Positions 26,455 through 38,010 of a DNA stretch of 64,000 bases are shown here, one piece after another. The stretch spans positions 195,457 through 259,456 of the forward strand of contig JBGAFW010000002.1 in assembly GCA_044227045.1 (NCBI GenBank), read 5' to 3'. Below the pieces are notes generated by a model that worked only from the letters and a program-made list of their open reading frames with translations, did no database searches and had not been told where the DNA came from. Source of the DNA: Labilithrix sp. GTDB lineage: Bacteria; Myxococcota_A; Polyangia; Polyangiales; Polyangiaceae. Positions within the stretch are counted from its first letter, which is position 1; each line of letters opens with the position of its first letter. The translations under genes and the position numbers were made by a program.

Positions 26455-27567
26455 TCAGGGCGTCACTTCGACACGCATCGCGACCGCGCCGAAGGGCTGA
26501 CCCCACGACGCGACGTCGTCTCCGCCGACGCTCAGGGTCAAACGCTGGAGCGTCGTTCCGATCAACGCGTCCACCGCGAGGCGCACCGGGCCGTAGATCC
26601 GAAGCGAGCCACCCGCGCCGACGTTGGCCTGGGCGGTCGCGAGCAAGTCTCTCTCCTTCGTGAAGGAGCCTCCGTACGGCGCGGCCGAGACATCGAGCAG
26701 CACGGCGCCGAGCCCCGCGCCCAACGTCGGGACGAACCGCGAGGATGCATCGACGAGCGGTAGATCCACCGTCATCCCGAAGACGATCGGCTTCATCGTC
26801 GTCGAGACGAGGCCCCACGTCGGCGTGAAATACTGGCCCGTCGCGCCTTGTCCGATCGGCAGATCGAGCCTGGCGCCGAGCATGGCTTGCTTGGCGACGC
26901 GCACCGCGACCTTCGCCGAGAGCGCGTTCGCGCCCGCGTCGACGCCCATGAGGCGCGAGAAGCCTGCGCTGAGGAGCCACGGAGGCGTGCGCTCGTCTCT
27001 GCGTCGGGTGGGGCTCGCGTCGCCTGCGGCCGGAGGAAACGCGACGCCTTCGATCCCCGCCGTGTCGCTCTTGTCATAGGTGATGAACGTGGGCGGCGGG
27101 TCGGAGTCGCCGGCGCCATGCTCGAGGATGGCTCGCGAGATCTCGGCGGCTCGAAGCGCGACGCGGCTCGTGGGCTCCTCGGCGTCGGGCGCCTCGGCGA
27201 CGACTTGCCGAAAGCGAACGTTGCCGGATGCGTCGCGCGTGAAGATGCGGATCATCTCGCCATCCGAGCAGGCCGCCACCCAGCCACGCTTCTCTTCCAG
27301 CCTGGCGCCGACGACGACGCGCGCGCAGTGGTTGGCGTCGTCGACGCGATCCGCGCGGATGTCGAGCGCGGTGAGCTCCTTCTCGAGGCGATCACCGATC
27401 GGATCTCCGGGAGCTGCGGCGACGACGATGCGGCGATCTGCGGCCTCCGCGACGCGATCGACGGACAGCACCGCGCCAAGCACGGAGAACGCAATCGCAG
27501 CCCGAGCGCTGGCTCTCACGGCATGCAAAGTGTCCACAGGCCTTCGTGACGGCTCAACAAAGTGCAT
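26455..27567 (-). CDS. Secreted hypothetical protein
   Basis: Signal peptide (AAIAFSVLGAVLS). Gly/Ala-rich beta-type composition in the C-terminal half. Confidence 0.5.
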   Translation of the reverse strand: MHFVEPSRRPVDTLHAVRASARAAIAFSVLGAVLSVDRVAEAADRRIVVAAAPGDPIGDRLEKELTALDIRADRVDDANHCARVVVGARLEEKRGWVAACSDGEMIRIFTRDASGNVRFRQVVAEAPDAEEPTSRVALRAAEISRAILEHGAGDSDPPPTFITYDKSDTAGIEGVAFPPAAGDASPTRRRDERTPPWLLSAGFSRLMGVDAGANALSAKVAVRVAKQAMLGARLDLPIGQGATGQYFTPTWGLVSTTMKPIVFGMTVDLPLVDASSRFVPTLGAGLGAVLLDVSAAPYGGSFTKERDLLATAQANVGAGGSLRIYGPVRLAVDALIGTTLQRLTLSVGGDDVASWGQPFGAVAMRVEVTP

Positions 27568-27585
27568 GATGCTTCGCCCCCGCGA

Positions 27586-28689
27586 TCACGCATTCGGTGC
27601 GCGTCCGATGGGCTTAGGCAGCGCGCGCTTGCGGCTCCCGAACGCCTTCGCGACCGTCTCGGGCGAAATCCACTCGGCACGCGACCACGACAGGTCACCC
27701 CCATCTGCGCCTTGTTCGCGCGTCAAGATCCACGGCGCGTGGACGAAGTCCTCGACCTCGGCGGTCTCTCCGATCGCCACCTGCCATGGGAGCTCACCCG
27801 TCGCCCACTCGACCTTCGTCGTCGCGCGCTCGGAGAGCCGCGGGTAGGTGAGGTCTTCGTACCGCACCTCGCTCTCCGAGGCGGCAGCTCGACCGGCATC
27901 GATCGGCGTGACGATCGACCAATGCCCGTCGTCGGAGACGACCAGCCAGCGAAGACCTTCGGTCGTGGCGGTCGTGTCGTAGATCAAATACTCGTCCCAC
28001 GTCGACGAGGTGGAGACGTTCCGCCGGCTCACCAAGCCAAGCACGCGACATCGGTCGCCAGGGCGCATCAGCCCCACACCTTCGTCGCCGACGTCCAAGC
28101 ACGGCGGCAACCCCTTCGGACGGGACACGTTCGGCGCCGGATCGAACCGCGGCCATCCTTGCCGTGGACGAAGCCCAAGATCGCCGAGCGTCCGCCGCCG
28201 TCCTTCGAAGACGCGCGGCGTTCGTGCGTCACGATCCCCCTTCGCGCCGTAGTCGATCGACGCGACCACGGCGGGCCGCGTCCGCGACGAGAGGTCCGCG
28301 TAGCGAAACGTCGCGCCGGCCTCGTCGCCTTCGACCTCGCCCCAGCGGGCGACGCGCGTCCCTTCGCCGCGCTCGACCACGACGAAGTCGGTCGCGAGGC
28401 TTACGCCCACCTCGAGATCGTCCCAGGAGGGCGCCAAGGTCGCTTCTTCCATCACCGCGATCGATCCGCCGGGCGCTTCGGCGAGGAAGTAGCGCGGCTC
28501 GTCCTCCGGCACGTCGAGGAAGCGAATCGCCCACTCGTTCGAGATCGCCCCTTTGCGCCCGCGCATGCAGGTGCGGCCCGCGAGGACGAAGGGGCGGCCA
28601 TCGAGCACGCCGCGATCGCCGAGCGTGAGCACGGTCGACTCTTCGAGCCGGCCGGCGATGCCTGTCGCGTTCGACCCCGGACGGTTCAT
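27586..28689 (-). CDS. Hypothetical protein, possibly a tandem DUF4178-like protein (start MNRPGSNATG)
   Basis: Coherent non-Arg-rich composition begins only at MNRPG. Upstream part of the track ORF is an artefact. ATGA overlap with the dipeptidase stop. Confidence 0.45.
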   Translation of the reverse strand: MNRPGSNATGIAGRLEESTVLTLGDRGVLDGRPFVLAGRTCMRGRKGAISNEWAIRFLDVPEDEPRYFLAEAPGGSIAVMEEATLAPSWDDLEVGVSLATDFVVVERGEGTRVARWGEVEGDEAGATFRYADLSSRTRPAVVASIDYGAKGDRDARTPRVFEGRRRTLGDLGLRPRQGWPRFDPAPNVSRPKGLPPCLDVGDEGVGLMRPGDRCRVLGLVSRRNVSTSSTWDEYLIYDTTATTEGLRWLVVSDDGHWSIVTPIDAGRAAASESEVRYEDLTYPRLSERATTKVEWATGELPWQVAIGETAEVEDFVHAPWILTREQGADGGDLSWSRAEWISPETVAKAFGSRKRALPKPIGRAPNA

Positions 28690-29729
28690 GCCTCGGCGAG
28701 CACGCGCATGACGTTGTCGCGAAGGAGCTTGCCGACGGCCTTCTCCGAGAAGCCCGCGTCGAGGAGCGCGTCGGTGAGGAGCGGCAGCCCGCGCGGATCT
28801 TTCAAGGGCTTCGTGGGGATGATGAACCCATCCCAATCGCTTCCGAGCGCAGGGGCATCCTCTCCGACGATGTCGACGATGTGCTTCAAATGGCGAACGA
28901 CCGGCTCCAGGCCATCGCCGCCGACGAACTTCGGGCAGAAGATGACGCCGACGACACCTCCTTTGTCCGCGACCGCACGCAGCTGCTCGTCGTCGATGTT
29001 GCGCCAATGCTCGAACGCGCCGATGACGCCGGTGTGGCTCACGATCGGCGGCTTCTTCGCGACTCGGCACGCATCGAGGAAGCCCTTCTTGTTGATGTGG
29101 GCCAGGTCGACGATGACGTCTTCGGCCTCGCAGCGCTCGACGAGGCCGAAGCCCCATCGGGTGAGCCCGTCGTCGTCGCGCCGGCCGCGGCCGTAGGCGG
29201 GGTAACCCGCTTCGTTCGCGCTGAAGTGGAGGAGGCCGATGTAGCGGACGCCGCGGCGCGCGAAGACGCCGACGTTGTCGAGCGATCCTTCGAGCGCGTG
29301 CGCGCCTTCGATCCCGAGGAGGGCGCCCATGACACCCTCGCGCTTGCATTGCTCGATCTCGTGGGCCTTGCGGACGAGCCGGACCGAGCTCGACTTGTTC
29401 AAGAGCTGCCGGTCGAGCGCGTCGATCTGCTCGTGCACCGTGCGCGCCATGCCCCGCGGTCGATCCGCGAGGGGCAGGGACACGAGGCCGAAGAACTGCG
29501 CGCCCATTCCACCTTCGCGCATCCGCGGGAGGTCGACGTGGCCGCCGAGCGCCGCGAACGGCAGCGGTGGCTCGTGGGCTTTGTGGATGTCGTAGTCGAG
29601 CCAACGCGACCACATGAGCGTGTCGGCATGGAGATCAATCGCCGGATGCTCGGCGTGGATCGCGCGCGCCGCGTCGGAGCCGTGCGTGATCGCGTTCGAG
29701 GTCTTGTTGGGAGAGGAGCTCTGGGTCAT
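28686..29729 (-). CDS. Membrane dipeptidase (peptidase family M19)
   Basis: AIDLHADTL and HFSANEAGYPAYG motifs. Family-typical length. Confidence 0.85.
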   Translation of the reverse strand: MTQSSSPNKTSNAITHGSDAARAIHAEHPAIDLHADTLMWSRWLDYDIHKAHEPPLPFAALGGHVDLPRMREGGMGAQFFGLVSLPLADRPRGMARTVHEQIDALDRQLLNKSSSVRLVRKAHEIEQCKREGVMGALLGIEGAHALEGSLDNVGVFARRGVRYIGLLHFSANEAGYPAYGRGRRDDDGLTRWGFGLVERCEAEDVIVDLAHINKKGFLDACRVAKKPPIVSHTGVIGAFEHWRNIDDEQLRAVADKGGVVGVIFCPKFVGGDGLEPVVRHLKHIVDIVGEDAPALGSDWDGFIIPTKPLKDPRGLPLLTDALLDAGFSEKAVGKLLRDNVMRVLAEA

Positions 29730-29879
29730 GAGGAACGTGAGGACGGGAATTGTCGCTCACATCGAGGCCGCCGGGAGGGGATAGCGAGGGTGCCGCAAGG
29801 AAATCTACGTAATTTTATTGAGTTGACCAAGGTACTTGAGTTTTCCGATGCGACAATTAGATTCCTGGTCGGTCCCTCC

Positions 29880-30332
29880 ATGCTTCGCCTCTCGAACCGC
29901 GGTCGCTACGCCTTGAAGGCGGTCTTCGATCTCGCCGTTCATTCGGAGTCGCCGGTGCAGGTGAAGGACGTCGCCACGCGCCAGAAGATCCCGCTGCGGT
30001 TCCTCGAGCAAATCTTCCAGCTCCTGAAGCGGGCGAACCTCGTCGAGTCGAAGCGCGGACCACGCGGCGGGTTTCTGCTCGCCAAAGAGCCGGATGAAGT
30101 GAAGCTCGGCGACGTCCTCCGCGCGGTCGAAGGCCCGGTCGTGCTCACCGGCAACCAGCGCCAACAGAAGCGGGGCGCGAGCACCGCCGACGTCACCGAC
30201 GCTGTCCTCGCGGACCTCTCGCGCTCGGTCGAGCAATGCTTCGACGGGATCACCCTCCAAGACCTTTGCGCGCGTGGTGAGCGGGTCGCGCTTCAAAAAG
30301 CCCGCAGCGCGGCCACTCCGTACGTTATCTAA
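29880..30332 (+). CDS. Rrf2-family transcriptional regulator (IscR/CymR-like)
   Basis: MLRLSNRGRYALKAVFDLA... N-terminal wHTH typical of Rrf2. 150 aa. Confidence 0.85.
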   Translation: MLRLSNRGRYALKAVFDLAVHSESPVQVKDVATRQKIPLRFLEQIFQLLKRANLVESKRGPRGGFLLAKEPDEVKLGDVLRAVEGPVVLTGNQRQQKRGASTADVTDAVLADLSRSVEQCFDGITLQDLCARGERVALQKARSAATPYVI

Positions 30333-30370
30333 GTCAGCCAGGCCCACTCCAGACAAGACGCCCAGACAAG

Positions 30371-31366
30371 ATGATCGCCGAATCGATGCTCGACCTCGTT
30401 GGACACACGCCGCTCGTGCGTGTCCGCGCGGACTGGCTCAACAACAGCGAAGGCTCGGCGAAGATCTGGGCGAAGATGGAGAACCTGAACCCCGGCGGGA
30501 GCGTCAAGGATCGCATCTGCCGCGCCATGATCGAAGACGCCGAGGCGCGCGGCCTCCTCGTCAAGCCAGGTCCCGTCGTGGAGCCTACGAGCGGCAACAC
30601 CGGCATCGGCCTCGCGCTCGTCTGCGCGGTGAAGGGCTATCGCCTCATCTTGACGATGCCCGAGAGCATGAGCCTCGAGCGCCGTCAGCTCCTCGAGGCG
30701 TACGGCGCGGAGATCGTGCTCACCCCGGCAGACGGGCAGATGGAAGGCGCGATCGAGAAGGCCCGCGAGATCGTCCAGGAGACGCCGGGCGCGTTCATGC
30801 CGCAACAGTTCGAGAGCGCCGCGAATCCCTCCGTGCATGCGCGCACCACCGCCTTCGAGATCCTCCAGGCGATGGACGGCTGCTCGATCGACGCGTTCGT
30901 CGCGGGCGTCGGGACGGGCGGCACCGTCAGCGGCGTGAGCCCGGAGCTTCGGAAGGTTCATCCGCACGTCCGCATCATCGCGGTCGAGCCCGACGCCTGC
31001 GCCACGATCTCGCGCGGGCAGCGCGGGCCGACGAAGATCCAAGGGCTCGCCGCCGGTTTCGTCCCGAAGAACTACGACGCCTCGGTCGTCAACGAGGTGC
31101 GCACCGTCACCGACGACGACGCGTGGCGCACGAAGAACCTCCTCGCCAAGCACGAGGGCTTGCTCGTCGGCATCAGCGCAGGCGCGGCGGTGAACGTCGC
31201 GCTCGACATCGCCCGCGAGCTGCGTGATCCCAAGAAGAACGTCGTCACCGTCCTCTGCGACACAGGCGAGCGCTACTTCAGCCTCGACGAGTATTTCCAG
31301 CACCTCAAGGGCAGCGATCCCGGCTCCACGAACGCCGAGCGCCTTCGCAAGGGGCCGCGTCGATGA
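30371..31366 (+). CDS. cysK: Cysteine synthase A (O-acetylserine sulfhydrylase)
   Basis: PLP-fold motifs NPGGSVKDR, TSGNTGIGLA and GVGTGGT. Confidence 0.9.
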   Translation: MIAESMLDLVGHTPLVRVRADWLNNSEGSAKIWAKMENLNPGGSVKDRICRAMIEDAEARGLLVKPGPVVEPTSGNTGIGLALVCAVKGYRLILTMPESMSLERRQLLEAYGAEIVLTPADGQMEGAIEKAREIVQETPGAFMPQQFESAANPSVHARTTAFEILQAMDGCSIDAFVAGVGTGGTVSGVSPELRKVHPHVRIIAVEPDACATISRGQRGPTKIQGLAAGFVPKNYDASVVNEVRTVTDDDAWRTKNLLAKHEGLLVGISAGAAVNVALDIARELRDPKKNVVTVLCDTGERYFSLDEYFQHLKGSDPGSTNAERLRKGPRR

Positions 31367-32127
31367 GCTCGGGCGATCGTCAGGTGCTCCAGAAGAAGCG
31401 CGTCCTCGTCGTAGGCATTGGTGGCCTCGGATGTCCTGCGGCGATCGTGCTCGCGCGCGCCGGCGTCGGCACGATCGGGATCGCCGACGATGACGACGTC
31501 GATCTCACGAACCTGCATCGCCAGGTGCTGTTCGAAGACGCTGACGTCGGCAAGCCCAAGACCGACGTCGCCGTGACGCGTCTCTCTTCATGGACGGCGG
31601 GCGTCGCCTCGCCGGCGATCGTCCCGCACCGCACACGCCTTCTCCCAACGAACGCGATCGCGCTCGTCCGCGACTACGACCTCGTCGTCGAGGGCAGCGA
31701 CAACTTCGCGACGAAATTCCTCGCCGCCGACGCCTGCGCGATCGCGAACAAGCCGATCGTTCACGCCGCGGCGGTCCGCTGGCATGGCACCGCGCTCGCG
31801 GTCGCTCCGCATGGCGCGCCTTGCTACCGCTGCGTCTTCGAAGACCTGCCGCTCGAGAACCCGCCGAACTGCGCCGAGGCGGGTGTTGTCGGCCCGATGG
31901 TGGGCGTCGTCGCGGCCGCGCAGGCCGATCTCGCGCTCTCGGCGCTCCTCGGTGATGCGAGCGTCTTCGGCGAGCTCTTCACCTTCGACGGCAAGTCGCT
32001 CACCTCGCGGCGAAGGCACGTCGCGAAGCGCTCGACCTGCGCGCTCTGCGGCGACGCAGCCAGCATGGCGCGCATCCAAGACATCAACGAGGCCCGCTAC
32101 GTCGAAGGCATCTGCGCCGCCGGCTAG
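31363..32127 (+). CDS. ThiF/MoeB/MoeZ-type E1-like adenylyltransferase. It lacks the rhodanese domain found in M. tuberculosis MoeZ.
   Basis: Rossmann GIGGLGCPAAIVLARAGVG. Two CxxC pairs (CYRC, CALC). ATGA overlap with the cysK stop. Confidence 0.85.
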   Translation: MSSGDRQVLQKKRVLVVGIGGLGCPAAIVLARAGVGTIGIADDDDVDLTNLHRQVLFEDADVGKPKTDVAVTRLSSWTAGVASPAIVPHRTRLLPTNAIALVRDYDLVVEGSDNFATKFLAADACAIANKPIVHAAAVRWHGTALAVAPHGAPCYRCVFEDLPLENPPNCAEAGVVGPMVGVVAAAQADLALSALLGDASVFGELFTFDGKSLTSRRRHVAKRSTCALCGDAASMARIQDINEARYVEGICAAG

Positions 32128-32184
32128 CCCAACCACCCAACCGATCACGCACGCATTCAGACAGAGGAAAGGAAGACACTCATC

Positions 32185-32457
32185 ATGGACACGATCGTCA
32201 GAATCCCCGCCGCGCTCCGAACGTTGACCGGCGGTGCCGACGAAGTGAAGGCCGCTGGGGGCACGGTCGGCGACGTCATCGAGGATCTCGAGAAGCGTCA
32301 CCCTGGCTTGAAGGACCGCCTCCTCGACGACAAGGGCGTTCGCCGCTTCATCAACATCTACGTCGGCGAAGAAGACGTCCGCTTCACCGGTGGCCTCAAG
32401 ACGGAGCTGAAGTCCGGCGACCAGATCAGCATCATCCCGGCGATCGCGGGCGGCTGA
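32185..32457 (+). CDS. cysO: CysO/ThiS/MoaD-family sulfur carrier protein with a C-terminal Gly-Gly
   Basis: 90 aa. Ends ...IIPAIAGG. Beta-grasp size and composition. Confidence 0.8.
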   Translation: MDTIVRIPAALRTLTGGADEVKAAGGTVGDVIEDLEKRHPGLKDRLLDDKGVRRFINIYVGEEDVRFTGGLKTELKSGDQISIIPAIAGG

Positions 32458-32482
32458 AATAGGGCTCCGCGCCTCGAACGAC

Positions 32483-32791
32483 ATGACCCCCGAACAACGC
32501 CGCCGCTACGGACGCCAAATCCGCCTCGCCGAGATCGGTGAAGCCGGCCAAGCTGCGCTCTGTTCGCTCGAGGTCTCGCTCGCTTCGCGTGGCGAGCATG
32601 CGCGTGCGATCGAGCGGCGCTACCTCGAGGCCGCCGGCGCGCGGGTCGTGGGGACGGGCGATGAGGCTCACGAGATCGTTCCCACGCTCGGCCTCCGGCA
32701 TCCCGAAGCGCGCGAGCTCGCCGAGGGCGCGATGCACGCGCTCGACGCGATTCGCGCCTCTGTGCTCTCGGCGAAGGGCAACGCGCCATGA
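32483..32791 (+). CDS. Truncated ThiF/MoeB-N-terminal-like ORF. It keeps the RYxRQI motif but lacks the GxGxxG nucleotide loop, so it is a possible pseudo-E1 or gene remnant.
   Basis: EQRRRYGRQIRLAEIGEAGQAALCSLEV aligns to the MoeB start RYNRQIILRGFDFDGQEALKDSRV. Stop overlaps the cysM start by 4 nt. Confidence 0.4.
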   Translation: MTPEQRRRYGRQIRLAEIGEAGQAALCSLEVSLASRGEHARAIERRYLEAAGARVVGTGDEAHEIVPTLGLRHPEARELAEGAMHALDAIRASVLSAKGNAP

Positions 32792-33735
32792 GCGGGTGGC
32801 TTCGTGCGCGCCGGATCGAGTCCGTCGTCGAGGCGGTGGGCGACACGCCGCTCCTTCGCCTGCGCCTTGCGATGAAGACAGCGCCGAGCGTGCCGGTGTA
32901 CGCGAAGCTCGAGTTCGAGAACCCCGGCGGCAGCGTCAAAGATCGCGCGGCGCTTCGGATGATTCAAGACGCGATGAAAGACGGGCGCTTGTCGAAGGGC
33001 AAGGTCCTCATCGACTCGACGAGCGGCAACACCGGCGTCGCATACTCGCTCTTCGGCGCCGCGCTTGGCATTCCGGTGAAGCTCGTGATGCCTTCGAACG
33101 TGTCGAAGGCGCGGAAGGACATCGCGCAGGCGTTCGGCACCGAGATCATCTGGTCCGATCCGCTCGAGGGATCCGACGGCGCGATCCGCCTCGCGAAGAA
33201 GATCACCGATGAGGAGCCGGGCCGCTTCTTCTACCCGGATCAGTACTCGAACCCGTCGAACCCCCTCGCGCACTACCACGGCACGGGTCCCGAGATCCTG
33301 CGCGACGTCGGCGATCGCATCACCCACTTCGTGGCCGGCCTCGGGACGAGCGGCACGATGATGGGCACGGCGCGCCGGCTGAAGGAGCACCATCGACCCA
33401 TCCGCTGCGTCGCCGTCGAGCCTGACGGGCCGATGCACGGCTTGGAAGGTCTCAAGCACATGGCGACGAGCCTCGTGCCGGCGATCTACAACCCGCGCAC
33501 GCACGACGAGGTCTTTCCTGTCTCCACCGAAGACGGCTGGGACATGGCCGATCGCCTCGCGCGCGAGGAGGGCCTTCATGTCGGCCACTCGTCGGGCGCG
33601 AACATCTTCTGCGCGGTGAAGATCGCCGAGCGCCTCGAAGCCGAAGGGAAGGCGGGCTGCATCGTCGCGATCGTCGCCGATCGAGGGGACCGCTACTTCT
33701 CACCCCTCCGGTGGGAGAAGAAATACGTGTGGTGA
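32788..33735 (+). CDS. cysM: CysM-type cysteine synthase (CysO-thiocarboxylate-dependent, PLP fold)
   Basis: NPGGSVKDR, STSGNTGVAYS and GLGTSGT motifs. Sits in a cysO/mec context as in M. tuberculosis. Confidence 0.85.
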   Translation: MSGWLRARRIESVVEAVGDTPLLRLRLAMKTAPSVPVYAKLEFENPGGSVKDRAALRMIQDAMKDGRLSKGKVLIDSTSGNTGVAYSLFGAALGIPVKLVMPSNVSKARKDIAQAFGTEIIWSDPLEGSDGAIRLAKKITDEEPGRFFYPDQYSNPSNPLAHYHGTGPEILRDVGDRITHFVAGLGTSGTMMGTARRLKEHHRPIRCVAVEPDGPMHGLEGLKHMATSLVPAIYNPRTHDEVFPVSTEDGWDMADRLAREEGLHVGHSSGANIFCAVKIAERLEAEGKAGCIVAIVADRGDRYFSPLRWEKKYVW

Positions 33736-33745
33736 GGAGAGGGTC

Positions 33746-34267
33746 ATGAGTGGTGACGAGAAGAAGCATCCCTGGATCCGCGGGTCGCTGCGCATCGCCA
33801 AAGCGGTGATCGATCGGGTCGATGAAGAGGCGCGCGCCGCCTTCGGGCGCGACGAAGAGAGCTGTGGGCTCTTGATCGGACCTGCGGGCGATCCGCTCTT
33901 CGTCGACGAGATCGTCACGATGGAGAATCGCGCGAACAAGCTCCATCGCCTCGACCCCGAGACCTACCCTCGCACGGGCAGGATGTACTTCGATATCGAT
34001 CCGATGAAGTTCGAGCGTGCCGTCCTTGCCGGCGAGTCGTCGGGGCGTCCGGTGAAGGTGCTCTACCATTCGCATCTCGACGTCGGCGCGTACTTCTCGG
34101 ACACGGACGCCGCGGCCGCGACGATGGGCGGCGACGCGCCCACGTACGACCTCGCGTACCTCGTCACCTCGGTGCGTGCGGGCGTCGTCGACGACCGTAA
34201 GCTCTTCATCTGGGACGGCGACACGCGACGCTTCGTCGAGACGAGCCTCGAGATCGCGACCGCCTAG
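33746..34267 (+). CDS. mec: JAMM/MPN+ metalloprotease (Mec+-like CysO-cysteine isopeptidase)
   Basis: JAMM motif HSHLDVGAYFSDTD (HxHx7SxxD). Upstream E (EESCGLL). Confidence 0.85.
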   Translation: MSGDEKKHPWIRGSLRIAKAVIDRVDEEARAAFGRDEESCGLLIGPAGDPLFVDEIVTMENRANKLHRLDPETYPRTGRMYFDIDPMKFERAVLAGESSGRPVKVLYHSHLDVGAYFSDTDAAAATMGGDAPTYDLAYLVTSVRAGVVDDRKLFIWDGDTRRFVETSLEIATA

Positions 34268-34332
34268 AAGCTCGTCCATCGTCGAAGACGGGGCGCAAAT
34301 CCGCGCAAATCTTCGAGACATGGTAAGTCTTA

Positions 34333-35691
34333 ATGACCGCTTCCATGGGGTCGTCTCCGTCATCCACCACGAACGTCGCCGCACGAGGCTTTGGCGTTCT
34401 GCTCGGCATGAGCGTCGCGCTCTCGTGCTCGCTCGTGGCGCGGGAAGCGCACGCCGACAACGCACGTGAGATCGCCGGCCGCGTGAACGAGCAGTGGCGC
34501 GTGGCGGGCGCGCGATCGATTCAGATCCCGACGCGGTTCTTGTTCGACGAGGAGACCGCGCTGATCGCGATCCCGCCGGACGAGACGGAGAAGGATGGAG
34601 ACTGCACGCAGATCGCGGTCATCGGATCACGCGGGCTCAGCTTCCGCGCGCGCCTCTCCGACGCGCCGGTGGATCCGCTGCTCCCGCCCGAGCCGGGCGC
34701 GCGAGGCTCGAGCACGGCGGGTGTCCTCGAGCTGCGACGCTGCGAGCGCGGCCGGCCGTCGATCCGTCACGTCATCATCACCGCCGAGGCAGGCCGCGGC
34801 GCCGTCGAGGTCGTGGTCGGGCGATCGCCCTCCCCACTGCCGTCGCTCGGATCGATCATCCCCGAGCGAACGGGCGGCGCGATCCCTCCGCCGCCCGAGG
34901 CCGGGCCGCTCCCTCCGCTCACGCCGCAAGACAAGCGCGCCGAGTCGGCGGAGGCTCGCGCTCGTCGTGACGGCGCCAACGTCCGCGCTCGCGTCAGCAC
35001 ACGCGCCGGCGACGATGGCTCGGGCGACGAAGAGCTCGAGCTCGACGAGGGGTGCCATCGGATCGAGGTGTTCGGCAAGGAGATGATGCGCGAGCGACCT
35101 GGGCGGCGCTTTCGCCTCGACGTCGACGCCGAGCTTCGCGACGGCGATCATCTCATCGCGCGCGACCGCACCGAGGCGCCGGACGCAAGGCTCGAGACGT
35201 GCGTGGGCGCGCCGACGAAGCTCACGCTTCTCTACTCCGGCACGCCGCCCCATACGGAGGTGGTCGTCACGCGCGGAAGCTGGCCGCTGCCGGCGCGCCT
35301 GCCGCCGATCTGGGGACCCACCGTGCGCAGCAAGATGGCGCGCGTGATGTTCCTCCGCCACGTCGCGGTGCCCTCCGAAGATCCCGTGTATCTTGCACAA
35401 GGTTCCGCCGGCACGACGCCGGTGCCGCTGTCGGTCGAGACCGGCGGCTGCTACGTCGCCGTCGTCGGGATCACTCACGGCCAACGCCTGCGCCAGCTCC
35501 AGCTTCGCGCGATCGTCGGCGCGCGCGAGTCGACCGACGAGCGAGGCGCGGCCGAAGAAGCGGCGCTCTCCGCGTTCTGCGTTCGCGCGCACGAGTCGGC
35601 GCGCGTCGAGGTGCTCGCGCGCGGAACGGGCATCAGCTGGGGCCTCGCGCTGTTTCGCATCAAGAGCGGCCTCTGGGAGCCGGGGCGATGA
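34333..35691 (+). CDS. Secreted hypothetical protein with repeated Cys-anchored beta-type modules
   Basis: Signal peptide (MSVALSCSLVAREAHA). Internal modules CTQIAVIGSRG, CHRIEVFGKE and CYVAVVGITHG. Confidence 0.55.
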   Translation: MTASMGSSPSSTTNVAARGFGVLLGMSVALSCSLVAREAHADNAREIAGRVNEQWRVAGARSIQIPTRFLFDEETALIAIPPDETEKDGDCTQIAVIGSRGLSFRARLSDAPVDPLLPPEPGARGSSTAGVLELRRCERGRPSIRHVIITAEAGRGAVEVVVGRSPSPLPSLGSIIPERTGGAIPPPPEAGPLPPLTPQDKRAESAEARARRDGANVRARVSTRAGDDGSGDEELELDEGCHRIEVFGKEMMRERPGRRFRLDVDAELRDGDHLIARDRTEAPDARLETCVGAPTKLTLLYSGTPPHTEVVVTRGSWPLPARLPPIWGPTVRSKMARVMFLRHVAVPSEDPVYLAQGSAGTTPVPLSVETGGCYVAVVGITHGQRLRQLQLRAIVGARESTDERGAAEEAALSAFCVRAHESARVEVLARGTGISWGLALFRIKSGLWEPGR

Positions 35692-37376
35692 AGACGATCG
35701 CGCCTCTGCCCGTGATCGGGACGCTCGCCGCTCTCGCGATGGCGTCGGCGTGTGGTCCGCGTGCGCAGCCCGCCACGATGCCGCCGCCGACGGTGAACGA
35801 CCCACCGCGCGTGACGCCCGGGCCTCTCGAGGCGCGCCCGCTGCTCTCCGATTTGCCGGCGAAGGCGTCCCGCTTCGGCGCAGGTCCCGTCGCGATCGTC
35901 GCCGCGAGCCCGATGTCCGAAGGCGAGCGCGTCGGCGCGTTCGTCGACGTGCCGAAGGACGCGTGCCTGCTCGCCTATGCGCGATCGTCGGCGTCGCTCG
36001 AAGACATCGATCTCGCGGCGTTCGCCGAAGAAGGCAACCCCGTCGCTGTCGATGAGGGACCCGATCCACGTCCCACGATCCTGATCTGTCCGCCGCATCC
36101 AGACCGCGTGTACGTCGCCGCGCACGCCGCCGCGGGCGAAGGCCTCTGCGTGATCGCCGCGCAGCTCGTACCGCGAGACCGCGCCGAAGCCGTCGGGCGC
36201 GCGGTCGGAGCGCATGGCTCGACGCCGCGGTCCCCCGAGACATGGCCAGGCCTCGACGATCACGTCCGCAATCACCGCGCCGCGATCGGCGGCACGTGGG
36301 AAGAGCAGAGGCGCGTCGCCGTCGCGGTCGACTCGCGCGCTCCGTCGATCGTGGGGCTCACGATCGAGGAGGGGAGCTGCACGGACGCGCTCGTCGTGCC
36401 CGATGACGACGTCTCCGTGATCGACGTCGATGTGCTCGACGGCGAAGGGCGCCTCGTCGCGCGCGCGAAGGACACTTCGGCCATTCGATCGATCACGATC
36501 TGCTCGCAAGTCGCCGTCTCGGGATCGCTCCAGGTGCGACCGCACGTGGGTCGCGGCCTCGTCGCCGTCGTCGTCTCGAAGGCCAAGGCCGAGAGCACGC
36601 GCGAGATGCTCACCCGTCCCGAGGTCGCGTGGGTCGCGTCCGGGCTGCCGCTCGACTCGCAGCGCAACGCGCGCGAGAAGGCGCTCGGGAAAGCCGGCTA
36701 CGCGGGACCGTCCGCGAGCCAGACGGGCCAGCTCCAGCTCGGCCGCCGCGCGACCGTACCGGTCGATCTCGGCGCGGGACCGTGCGCACGCGTCGATGTC
36801 GTCGCCGGCGCTCCGCTCGCGCTCGTCGAAGCGGCGATCTGGGATGACAGCGGCGCTCTGCTCGCGAACGGCGACGGCGCGGACGGCGCTGTGCTCTTCG
36901 CGTGCGGCAAGGGCAAGGCGCGCGTCGATCTCGGCACGCGTGGCCGGCCTGGACCGTTCGCCGTCCTCGTCCGCCAGGAGAAGTGGAAGGACCCTGCGTT
37001 CTCGGCGCATCCGCTCGCCGCGAGCCGCATGCTGTCGCGCTCCTCGGGACCGGCGAGCGCGCCGCACGAAGGCAAGCCTGGCGCGGTGAAGCACGCCGTC
37101 CTCGAGCCGGCGAAGCGATACATGCATGATGCAAATATCGCCGCCGGCCAGTGTCTCCGCGTCTCCGCGGGCGTGGAGGGCGAAGGCACGGGCCTCGAGC
37201 TTCGGATGTGGGACGCGGTGACCGGCGAGGAGCTCGATCGATCGCACGGCCAGTTCTCGGCGAGCGTCCGCGCATGCACGGCATCCGCGGCGCGCTCGGT
37301 CCGAGTCGAGGCGCGCGCGTCCGCCGGCAAGCTCGACGCCGTCCTCGGCGAACGCCTGGTCAACGCGAAGGAGTGA
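35688..37376 (+). CDS. Lipoprotein paralogue of the preceding gene (about 5 repeated C-x-x-[LV]-x-V modules)
   Basis: Lipobox AMASAC. ATGA overlap with the preceding gene. The track ORF starting at 35052 has an artefactual N-terminal extension. Confidence 0.55.
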   Translation: MKTIAPLPVIGTLAALAMASACGPRAQPATMPPPTVNDPPRVTPGPLEARPLLSDLPAKASRFGAGPVAIVAASPMSEGERVGAFVDVPKDACLLAYARSSASLEDIDLAAFAEEGNPVAVDEGPDPRPTILICPPHPDRVYVAAHAAAGEGLCVIAAQLVPRDRAEAVGRAVGAHGSTPRSPETWPGLDDHVRNHRAAIGGTWEEQRRVAVAVDSRAPSIVGLTIEEGSCTDALVVPDDDVSVIDVDVLDGEGRLVARAKDTSAIRSITICSQVAVSGSLQVRPHVGRGLVAVVVSKAKAESTREMLTRPEVAWVASGLPLDSQRNAREKALGKAGYAGPSASQTGQLQLGRRATVPVDLGAGPCARVDVVAGAPLALVEAAIWDDSGALLANGDGADGAVLFACGKGKARVDLGTRGRPGPFAVLVRQEKWKDPAFSAHPLAASRMLSRSSGPASAPHEGKPGAVKHAVLEPAKRYMHDANIAAGQCLRVSAGVEGEGTGLELRMWDAVTGEELDRSHGQFSASVRACTASAARSVRVEARASAGKLDAVLGERLVNAKE

Positions 37377-38010
37377 CGGCGCTCCGGCCGATCCCGTTCG
37401 ACGAGGACACGGGGCTCTGGTCGCCCTTCTTTGCGCCGCCGGCCTGGCGCGGCTCGCGATGGAGCCCTTCGCCGATCTCTTCGATGAGCTTCTCGTTGAA
37501 CGCCGGGATGTCGTCGGGCTTGCGGCTCGTCACGAACCCGCCGTCGACGACGACCTCTTCATCGACCCACTTGGCGCCTGCGTTCGTGAGGTCGGTCTTG
37601 AGCGTCGGCCACGACGTCATCGTCCGTCCTTGGACGCAGCCCGCGTTGATGAGCGTCCACGGACCATGACAAATCGCGCCGACGGGCTTTCCAGCGCCGA
37701 CGATCTGCCGCACGAACGAGATCACCTCGGGGATGACGCGGAGCTGGTCCGGATTCATCACGCCGCCGGGTAGCACGAGCGCGTCGTAGTCGTTCGCGTT
37801 CGCCTTGCTGAGGGCGAGCGTGACATCGACCTCGTTGCCCCAGTCGGTGTGCTTCCACCCTTTGACGGTCTTTGCGTCGTCCTTCGGTGAGATCACGTCG
37901 CAGCGTGCGCCTTCGTCACGAAGCGCCTTCAGCGGCTCCTCGAGCTCCGATTGCTCGAAACCATCCGTAACGACGAACGCGACACGCTTACCCTCGAGCT
38001 TCTTTGTCAT
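37360..38010 (-). CDS. DJ-1/PfpI-family protein (class I glutamine amidotransferase-like)
   Basis: GKRVAFVVTDGFEQSEL. Catalytic Cys in AICHGP. Confidence 0.85.
   Translation of the reverse strand: MTKKLEGKRVAFVVTDGFEQSELEEPLKALRDEGARCDVISPKDDAKTVKGWKHTDWGNEVDVTLALSKANANDYDALVLPGGVMNPDQLRVIPEVISFVRQIVGAGKPVGAICHGPWTLINAGCVQGRTMTSWPTLKTDLTNAGAKWVDEEVVVDGGFVTSRKPDDIPAFNEKLIEEIGEGLHREPRQAGGAKKGDQSPVSSSNGIGRSAVTPSR

Follow-up and report, generated by a model that had tools for sequence, protein, structure and literature searches.

A stand-alone E1-derived mini-protein encoded alongside an N-terminally truncated E1 in a CysO-type operon of Labilithrix: a candidate split E1

All ubiquitin-like and sulfur-carrier pathways begin with an E1 enzyme, and the origin of the asymmetric eukaryotic E1, with its one active and one inactive domain, in symmetric ThiF/MoeB homodimers has mostly had to be deduced. 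A stretch of 64,000 nucleotides from Labilithrix sp. (GenBank assembly GCA_044227045.1, contig JBGAFW010000002.1; the whole stretch is called the window below) poses a question that touches on this transition. In an operon with the hallmarks of CysO-dependent cysteine synthesis, the genes for the CysO-like sulfur carrier and the CysM-type cysteine synthase are separated by an open reading frame (ORF) of just 102 codons, the mini-ORF, whose product, the mini-protein, begins like an E1 and ends before most of the E1 fold has been traversed. What is such a fragment for? The answer that we favor with modest confidence, chiefly from comparisons of sequences, is that the mini-protein is a minimal subunit, comparable to an inactive adenylation domain (IAD), which completes in trans a truncated E1 encoded two genes upstream.

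The mini-protein and its kinship with E1 enzymes

A preliminary description of the locus had assigned to this ORF of 102 amino acids (aa) the N-terminal hallmark of E1-like enzymes, followed by a degenerate GxGxxG loop, and both statements are borne out by translation and alignment. The reading begins MTPEQRRRYGRQIRLAEIGEAGQAALCSLEVSLASRGEHARAI... and the complete protein is MTPEQRRRYGRQIRLAEIGEAGQAALCSLEVSLASRGEHARAIERRYLEAAGARVVGTGDEAHEIVPTLGLRHPEARELAEGAMHALDAIRASVLSAKGNAP, with the E1 N-terminal motif RRRYGRQIRLAEIGEAGQAAL at its opening. When aligned to E. coli ThiF (1zud), its R8-Y9-G10-R11-Q12 falls opposite R8-Y9-S10-R11-Q12, i.e. the RYxRQ arginine-finger helix is retained, and the similarity is not confined to this pentapeptide: it extends over about 55-100 residues. 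In the loop that follows, SLASRGEHA of the mini-protein aligns with IIGLGGLGT of ThiF, with ASRGEH replacing GLGGLG, and the loop is degenerate across an alignment of 98 family members. The NLxRQ arginine, the GxPK lysine, the Mg-binding aspartate (xDN) and the CxxC zinc site are all absent from the 102 residues. The mini-protein is hence predicted to be incapable of adenylation.

On its own, the mini-protein matches the NCBIfam MoeB model PRK08762 with residues 2-58 (profile positions 121-176, E=3e-5), far below the cut-off of that model; the match of the upstream E1 to this model does not begin before profile position 143. The family profile matches the ThiF structure 1zud (residues 4-57, E=1.8e-4), followed by Uba4 and MoeB, and an hhalign comparison of the family with the N-terminal regions of 130 full-length E1s returns a probability of 98.9% (E=4e-17). 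At the level of the family, homology to the ThiF/MoeB/E1 superfamily (PF00899) is thus established. Two longer members, P0102 and P0089, even exceed the gathering score of Pfam ThiF (30.2 and 35.1 bits, respectively, vs 28.1). Compared to full-length E1s, longer members of about 115-145 aa display a clean deletion of 24 columns, which corresponds to the catalytic Arg/Lys loop, with α4-β3 kept. The mini family, with these members still passing the Pfam model and this very loop deleted, thus forms a reduction series from E1. Pfam has no match to the mini-ORF itself, and NCBIfam yields only the sub-threshold E1 matches and one spurious match to a beta-aspartyl-peptidase; the family has neither a Pfam nor an NCBIfam model, nor a description in the searched literature. 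As defined here, it collects unannotated proteins that annotation pipelines currently call hypothetical, and it flags the neighboring "ThiF" genes as incomplete on their own.

The AlphaFold2 model of the mini-protein, computed with the family alignment, has a predicted local distance difference test score (pLDDT) of 92.9 and a predicted template modeling score (pTM) of 0.84. It shows helices at residues 3-8, 10-13, 19-28 and 38-50, a long helix at 74-97, and strands at 30-33 and 54-58. With two strands only and a length of 102 aa, it falls short of a complete Rossmann fold of adenylation-domain size. The first 15 matches of the model in a Foldseek search of PDB are nevertheless all E1s, namely ThiF, Uba4, MoeB and the inactive SUMO E1 subunit SAE1. 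A colinear hhalign places the long C-terminal helix on E1 helix α4; the long forms, however, carry α4-β3 already ahead of this helix, and a weak alternative match (E=0.06) is to the helix after the crossover loop. In sum, the mini-protein has three of the traits of an IAD: it is E1-derived, catalytically dead by its motifs, and retains the arginine that IADs offer in trans.

A word-indexed search recovered the identical protein along with five small homologs (88-123 aa, 42-52% identity). A six-sequence profile, run against 1.84 billion cluster representatives, gave 1692 matches at E<=1e-3, 186 of them at E<=1e-10; the best 150 of the 1692 are almost all stand-alone proteins of 83-150 aa that align end to end. 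Invariant in the 98-member alignment are R11, G22, Q23, Y47, G52 and A86, while conservation is 90% or higher at Q12, L15, E17, G19, A51, G82, A83 and L87. Between the N-terminal block and the conserved C-terminal helix runs a linker of variable length and often of low complexity. The length of this linker is hypervariable among the homologs (about 10-90 aa, always in frame); in P0005 (L002:5295-5666) it contains the low-complexity repeat GAGAGTGTGTGTGAGADADADADAG.

In every related locus examined the mini-ORF is in frame and intact, at 30-50% identity. Against seven close relatives (dS about 0.08-0.10), the ratio of nonsynonymous to synonymous substitution rates (dN/dS), based on small counts, is 0.06-0.35, with 0.20-0.26 for the upstream E1, 0.02 for cysM and 0 for CysO by way of comparison. 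Nearly all substitutions among these relatives are either conservative or confined to the linker (residues 53-68) and the disordered C-terminal tail: the N-terminal block has a single change (A24T) in one variant and the C-terminal helix none. Given the low dN/dS (again on small counts) and the integrity of the ORF across loci at this degree of divergence, a dead relic is excluded, in line with the preliminary description, and the orthologs whose absence or loss of frame would have spoken to the contrary are in place. By these comparisons, the 102-codon gene encodes a real, widely conserved small protein under purifying selection.

The truncated E1 and the case for complementation in trans

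The E1 encoded upstream, which starts MSSGDRQVLQKKRVLVVGIGGLGCP, retains every catalytic motif: GIGGLGCP, DDD, NLHRQ, GKPK, EGSDN and two CxxC pairs. Its alignment, however, begins only at position 14 of Pfam ThiF, residue 23 of E. coli ThiF and residue 26 of MoeB; it starts just before strand β1 and is without the RYxRQ arginine-finger helix. An in-frame start farther upstream is not possible for the E1 of the window. Likewise, all partner E1s with a complete 5' end (15/15) start no more than about 12 aa before β1, and the DNA 5' of the partner E1s in related loci is cysK read out of frame. We sampled the truncated-E1 clade with 123 sequences of 230-262 aa (119 homologs at 63-75% identity and four members of the window's cluster; some are annotated as Labilithrix sp.): none of the 123 has an RYxRQ-like motif or a match to the hidden Markov model (HMM) of the mini family, and typically 12-15 residues precede GxGGxG, vs about 30 or more in full-length E1s. 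Full-length E1s do occur in similar cysK/CysO/cysM contexts, with the arrangements Rrf2-cysK-E1 (alphaproteobacterial metagenome-assembled genomes, MAGs), E1-cysM...CysO, and CysO-E1-cysM (an Anaerolineae MAG). These have their own RYxRQ motif and no stand-alone mini-gene.

The mini profile, which finds full-length E1s so readily, scores just E=0.05 against the truncated-E1 clade in hhalign, and BLASTP detects nothing between the two proteins (E=1.7). Thus, mini-protein and truncated E1 together span a full-length E1 profile, and next to no overlap between them is detectable. A further candidate, raised in the preliminary description, was that the mini-ORF is a duplicated remnant of the upstream E1; by neither comparison is it recognizable as a recent duplicate of that gene as it now stands, and in this form the candidate was rejected.

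Since the upstream E1 is without exactly the segment that the mini-ORF keeps, a subunit complementing it in trans leads over a generic scaffold or regulator. The earlier suggestion of a pseudo-E1 scaffold or regulatory subunit for the CysO system therefore survives in its first half, in that a pseudo-E1 subunit is supported, and recedes in its second, with the function proposed here taking its place as the likelier one. Under this proposal, the mini-protein would be a minimal, catalytically dead derivative of the E1 adenylation domain, composed of α1-α2 with the arginine finger, a vestigial β1-α-β2 without the nucleotide loop, the variable linker, and one long C-terminal helix. The E1 two genes upstream has the complementary defect, with its catalytic motifs all kept and about 20 N-terminal residues gone, the ones that extend across the dimer in homodimeric ThiF/MoeB. 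The mini-protein is predicted to dock on this truncated E1 and to supply helix and arginine in trans. The outcome would be a two-gene E1, with an active and a mini inactive subunit, for the adenylation of CysO in CysM-dependent cysteine synthesis, and with a stoichiometry that may be maintained by the tight translational coupling of CysO, mini-protein and CysM. A precedent for the transfer of the arginine is found in ThiF Arg11 and MoeB Arg14, the arginine fingers that reach from the neighboring subunit of the homodimer to the ATP γ-phosphate (PMC13139853). The pseudo-dimer is supported by the complementary loss together with genomic linkage: the adjacency of E1 and mini-gene persists even in loci without cysO or cysM (L002, L004), i.e. 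the linkage is to the E1. Further, the vestigial β1-α-β2 still found in the mini-protein would point to duplication followed by complementary degeneration, and not to simple gene fission. The binding, its stoichiometry (a 1:1 pseudo-dimer or a decorated E1 homodimer), the contact of R11 with ATP and the effect on activity are what we infer from this pattern.

Several considerations weigh against complementation. The arginine finger of MoeB and ThiF has been reported to be catalytically non-essential (PMC13139853), so that the truncated E1 might work alone. The heteromer of E1 and mini-protein is itself a deduction of ours. The truncated E1 and the mini-gene may occur together owing to one ancestral event within a single clade of Polyangia; their pairing does not amount to 20 or more independent observations, and all loci but one were found through the mini-protein. 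There is no obvious Shine-Dalgarno sequence before the ATG of the mini-ORF. Finally, the position between cysO and cysM and a natural CysO-mini fusion (see below) fit a role directed at CysO or CysM equally well.

The reported dispensability of the arginine finger in MoeB and ThiF (PMC13139853) also speaks for an alternative in which the mini-protein would be a regulatory decoy, binding the dimer interface of the E1 or capping its ATP site, and thereby inhibiting or gating the activation of CysO, e.g. in response to redox or sulfur status. The mini-protein is catalytically dead with E1 surface elements kept, as a decoy would be, and the N-terminal helices of E1s are mobile near the ATP site (PMC7527816, on Uba4). 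Yet, the mini-gene is presumably co-transcribed and, via a 4-nucleotide (nt) overlap with cysM, translationally coupled in a biosynthetic operon, which suggests stoichiometric co-production and not conditional control. Moreover, the partner E1 is specifically without the same element, a loss that complementation explains and inhibition does not. We accordingly regard a decoy as improbable.

Operon context and related loci

The features of the operon are collected in Table 1. The neighboring genes are those named in the preliminary description (cysK-like, E1, CysO, cysM and JAB/Mec), as Pfam and NCBIfam concur. With a GG-terminated carrier, a CysM-type enzyme dependent on pyridoxal phosphate (PLP), a JAB peptidase and an E1 clustered together, this is a CysO-CysM-Mec operon, syntenic in about 20 loci. 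The stop of the cysK-like gene overlaps the start of the E1 gene, and the carrier has the C-terminus AIAGG, ending in GG. The overlap of the mini-ORF stop with the cysM start, another point on which the earlier reading was right, consists of TGA at 32789-32791 and ATG at 32788-32790; the identical 4-nt overlap is present in L001, L003, L005, L006, L010 and L177. A scan of the operon for promoters and terminators gave no internal ones and nothing meaningful, and an Rfam scan of the whole window gave no family at gathering score, with no riboswitch upstream of the cysteine operon.

Table 1. Coordinates of the operon genes and of elements of the mini-ORF in the window
Feature	Coordinates	Strand	Basis or remarks
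Transcriptional regulator of the Rrf2 family, at the head of the syntenic block	29880..30332	+	Pfam Rrf2 E=5.5e-28; start MLRLSNRGRYAL
cysK-like O-acetylserine sulfhydrylase (PLP)	30371..31366	+	Pfam PALP 1.2e-71; NCBIfam cysK TIGR01139 381 bits (cut-off 351)
N-terminally truncated ThiF/MoeB-type E1, 254 aa, presumed catalytic subunit	31363..32127	+	Pfam ThiF 5.8e-62
CysO-like ThiS/MoaD/SAMP sulfur carrier, 90 aa	32185..32457	+	Pfam ThiS 3.2e-17; NCBIfam MoaD_arch above cut-off
Mini pseudo-E1, 102 aa (102 codons)	32483..32791	+	member of an unnamed stand-alone family, about 83-150 aa
E1 N-terminal helices, residues 8-26, RYGRQIRLAEIGEAGQAAL	32504..32560	+	alignment to ThiF 1zud, RYGRQ opposite RYSRQ
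Codon of R11	32513-32515	+	equivalent of ThiF R11 and MoeB R14
Degenerate strand β1 and GxGxxG remnant, residues 31-40, VSLASRGEHA	32573..32602	+	aligned to ThiF LIIGLGGLGT
Conserved long C-terminal helix, residues 74-97, PEARELAEGAMHALDAIRASV, after the variable-length linker	32702..32773	+	AlphaFold2 helix; conservation
ATGA overlap of mini-ORF stop and cysM start	32788..32791	+	translational coupling
cysM-type cysteine synthase B	32788..33735	+	Pfam PALP 1.2e-60; NCBIfam cysM TIGR01138 320 bits (below equivalog cut-off 394)
Mec-like JAB/JAMM peptidase	33746..34267	+	Pfam Prok-JAB 4.6e-11; NCBIfam desampylase 2.6e-9, below cut-off

The scans for related loci used the six-sequence alignment, and the matches listed are dominated by the N-termini of full-length E1s. 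Among these matches are at least 22 stand-alone mini-gene loci with an intact ORF (MAGs of Myxococcales, Polyangiaceae and Sandaracinus; metagenomes). Their common order is an M19 peptidase gene on the minus strand, followed by Rrf2-cysK-E1-CysO-mini-cysM-Mec and a conserved gene of 452 aa; the Rrf2 gene is syntenic in L006, L007, L014, L086, L087 and L089. Two loci, L002 and L004, present a contracted version, in which the M19 gene (-) is followed by E1-mini and the same downstream 452-aa-type gene, with cysK, cysO, cysM and mec all missing. Here, the E1 and the mini-gene directly adjoin, 2-4 nt apart (L002:4573-5666, L004:625-1651). Thus, the mini-gene accompanies the E1 even where the other genes of the locus are missing, and either the pair's carrier gene lies elsewhere or the pair has another function. 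The one locus found via its E1, from Labilithrix sp. GCA_026128965.1, has the order cysK-E1 (240 aa)-ThiS-(93-aa ORF)-cysM-JAB, with E=3e-30 for the mini HMM.

These arrangements bear on a further alternative, in which the mini-protein would be an adaptor that binds CysO, CysM or Mec and not the E1, aiding the hand-over of the CysO-thiocarboxylate to CysM, or serving as a Mec-cleavable pro-sequence or a chaperone. The location of the mini-gene between cysO and cysM, coupled to both, agrees with such a role, as does the natural CysO-mini fusion P0132, which is identical in two independent assemblies (L174:709-1344, L175:140-775). The fusion gene lies between an E1 gene upstream and a JAB peptidase gene directly downstream, and its junction reads ...SIVAAIAGG-TAAGRG-RYSRQIRLAEVG... 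(motif RYSRQ); a free GG terminus would need cleavage, presumably by the adjoining JAB enzyme. An adaptor to these partners, however, leaves unexplained why the mini-gene stays with the E1 in L002 and L004, where cysO, cysM and mec are wanting. Moreover, conservation in the mini-protein is highest in the arginine-finger motif of the E1 active site, which has no known role in binding a ubiquitin-like protein or a PLP enzyme. We hence deem an adaptor unlikely and retain complementation of the truncated E1 as the preferred reading.

Base composition does not single out the frame of the mini-ORF, with a GC content at third codon positions (GC3) of 0.79 as opposed to 0.86-0.90 in the neighboring genes and a similar antisense frame; the coding call is therefore based on homology and conservation. 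The overlapping ORFs at 32432-32737 (-), 32358-32939 (-) and 32538-33212 (+) were rejected as high-GC artifacts: they have no homologs, and it is the plus frame of the mini-ORF that holds the conserved protein. More generally, the region 27562-37400 of the window is rich in overlapping ORFs, 100-770 aa long, in several frames and on either strand (e.g. 27562-29196 +, 34627-36243 - and 35475-37247 -). They are typical artifacts of a GC content of 67.5%, and ORF length is no evidence of coding there. That the mini-gene is a decaying fragment of a second E1, staying open by chance in a high-GC genome in which long spurious ORFs are common, and as its lower GC3 and lack of Pfam matches might suggest, is effectively refuted by conservation, given the 186 cluster representatives of similar size with conserved ends, the ORF intact everywhere at 30-50% identity with linker length changes in frame, a dN/dS below 1 and the high pLDDT of the model.

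Other features of these loci deserve mention. Directly downstream of the operon, the window has an ORF of 452 aa (34333-35691, +) with a signal-peptide-like N-terminus and no Pfam match, which is conserved in L004, L006, L009, L010, L086, L093, L095 and L166. On the other side lies the divergent gene for an M19 membrane dipeptidase (28686-29729, -; Pfam 1.1e-77). The presence of a dipeptidase beside the cysteine genes may conceivably point to salvage of Cys-Gly or glutathione. A DUF4178-type gene adjoins M19 in L002 and L177, with the corresponding ORF of the window, at about 27586-28700 (-), matched by position only; the M19 neighborhood of L002 also contains genes for spermidine synthase and S-adenosylmethionine decarboxylase. 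In an Anaerolineae MAG (L013:3329-4852), a CysO-like domain and a full-length E1 share one stop-free frame, a possible CysO-E1 fusion, which is followed by cysM. The full-length E1 in the place of the mini-gene suggests an E1 at that position as the ancestor of the mini-gene. Four loci from alphaproteobacterial MAGs and metagenomes (L054, L080, L121, L114) show Rrf2-cysK-E1 and have no mini-gene close by; their E1 is full-length (about 256-259 aa). This module resembles the first half of the operon in the window, and two modules may have merged to form the Polyangia locus.

Comparison with known systems

The closest matches of the mini-protein in sequence and fold are the E. coli ThiF and MoeB homodimers (1ZUD, 1JW9), with which it shares the RYxRQ...GxxGQxxL motif and the order of secondary structure elements; like its locus, they belong to a sulfur-carrier pathway of the ThiS/MoaD type. 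In contrast to them, it is without the GxGxxG, the NLxRQ arginine, the GxPK lysine, the Mg-binding aspartate, the crossover loop, the zinc site and more than half of the fold.

The IADs of the pseudo-dimeric E1s, i.e. NAE1/APPBP1-UBA3, SAE1-SAE2, and those of Uba1 and BilD, offer a close parallel: like the mini-protein they are E1-derived and have lost the activation of ATP and the ubiquitin-like partner, and they retain an N-terminal arginine, by which the partner's single active site is made complete. One of them, SAE1, is among the Foldseek matches given above. In bacterial BilD, the inactive domain donates Arg9 to the single active site (PMC10557695). For hUBA1, Arg57 is described as stabilizing, together with Arg515, the γ-phosphate site (PMC12355090); the placement of Arg57 in the inactive domain is our own reading. 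The differences are equally clear. A known IAD is a Rossmann domain of full size (about 200-500 aa), whereas the mini-protein, with a gene to itself, has just about 100 aa; the active partners of IADs have their N-termini intact, whereas the truncated E1 has no N-terminal helix; and IADs act in protein conjugation, whereas the mini-protein is found in a locus of sulfur-carrier metabolism. All known bacterial E1-like proteins except BilD are described as homodimers (PMC10557695).

Another parallel is the yeast Tcd1-Tcd2 pair, a ThiF-family heterodimer of ct6A dehydratases in which the impaired Tcd1 gives Arg59 to the ATP site of the active paralog (PMC13139853). The likeness would lie in the catalytically impaired paralog as donor of an arginine finger, and in duplication followed by complementary degeneration. 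Both Tcd subunits, however, are full-length, the substrate is a tRNA, and the Tcd1 arginine was found to be non-essential.

If the complementation proposed here is true, the locus would be a bacterial parallel to the eukaryotic heterodimeric E1s, and both halves of the transition to an asymmetric E1 would be visible as separate, co-evolving genes in one bacterial clade, making for a simple experimental system. Graded intermediates are at hand in the long forms that pass Pfam ThiF, the short forms and the carrier fusion, and the questions that they make addressable include the function served by the arginine-finger helix, whose essentiality is disputed, the minimal size of an inactive domain, and the subfunctionalization that locks paralogs together. 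It is conceivable, though we stop short of calling it probable, that Polyangia (Labilithrix, Polyangiaceae, Sandaracinus) run the CysO pathway with an obligate two-gene E1, composed of a catalytic subunit without the arginine-finger helix and a minimal inactive subunit of 100 aa. The latter would then be the smallest IAD known, and the system would repeat, independently in bacteria and in sulfur metabolism, the duplication and complementary degeneration from which the eukaryotic heterodimeric E1s arose, with the long forms and the CysO-mini fusion as surviving intermediates.

In its overall logic, the operon corresponds to the CysO-CysM-Mec/MoeZR system of M. tuberculosis and to types 4c and 4d of Iyer et al. 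2006, which likewise combine a GG-terminated ThiS-like carrier with a CysM-type PLP enzyme, a JAB peptidase and an E1. There, one full-length polypeptide holds the E1 together with a rhodanese domain, whereas in the window the E1 is rhodanese-less, N-terminally truncated and accompanied by the mini pseudo-E1, with an additional cysK and an Rrf2 regulator at the head of the operon. The operon type is thus already known; what is new is the pairing of a truncated, rhodanese-less E1 with a separately encoded pseudo-E1 of 100 aa that keeps the arginine-finger helix.

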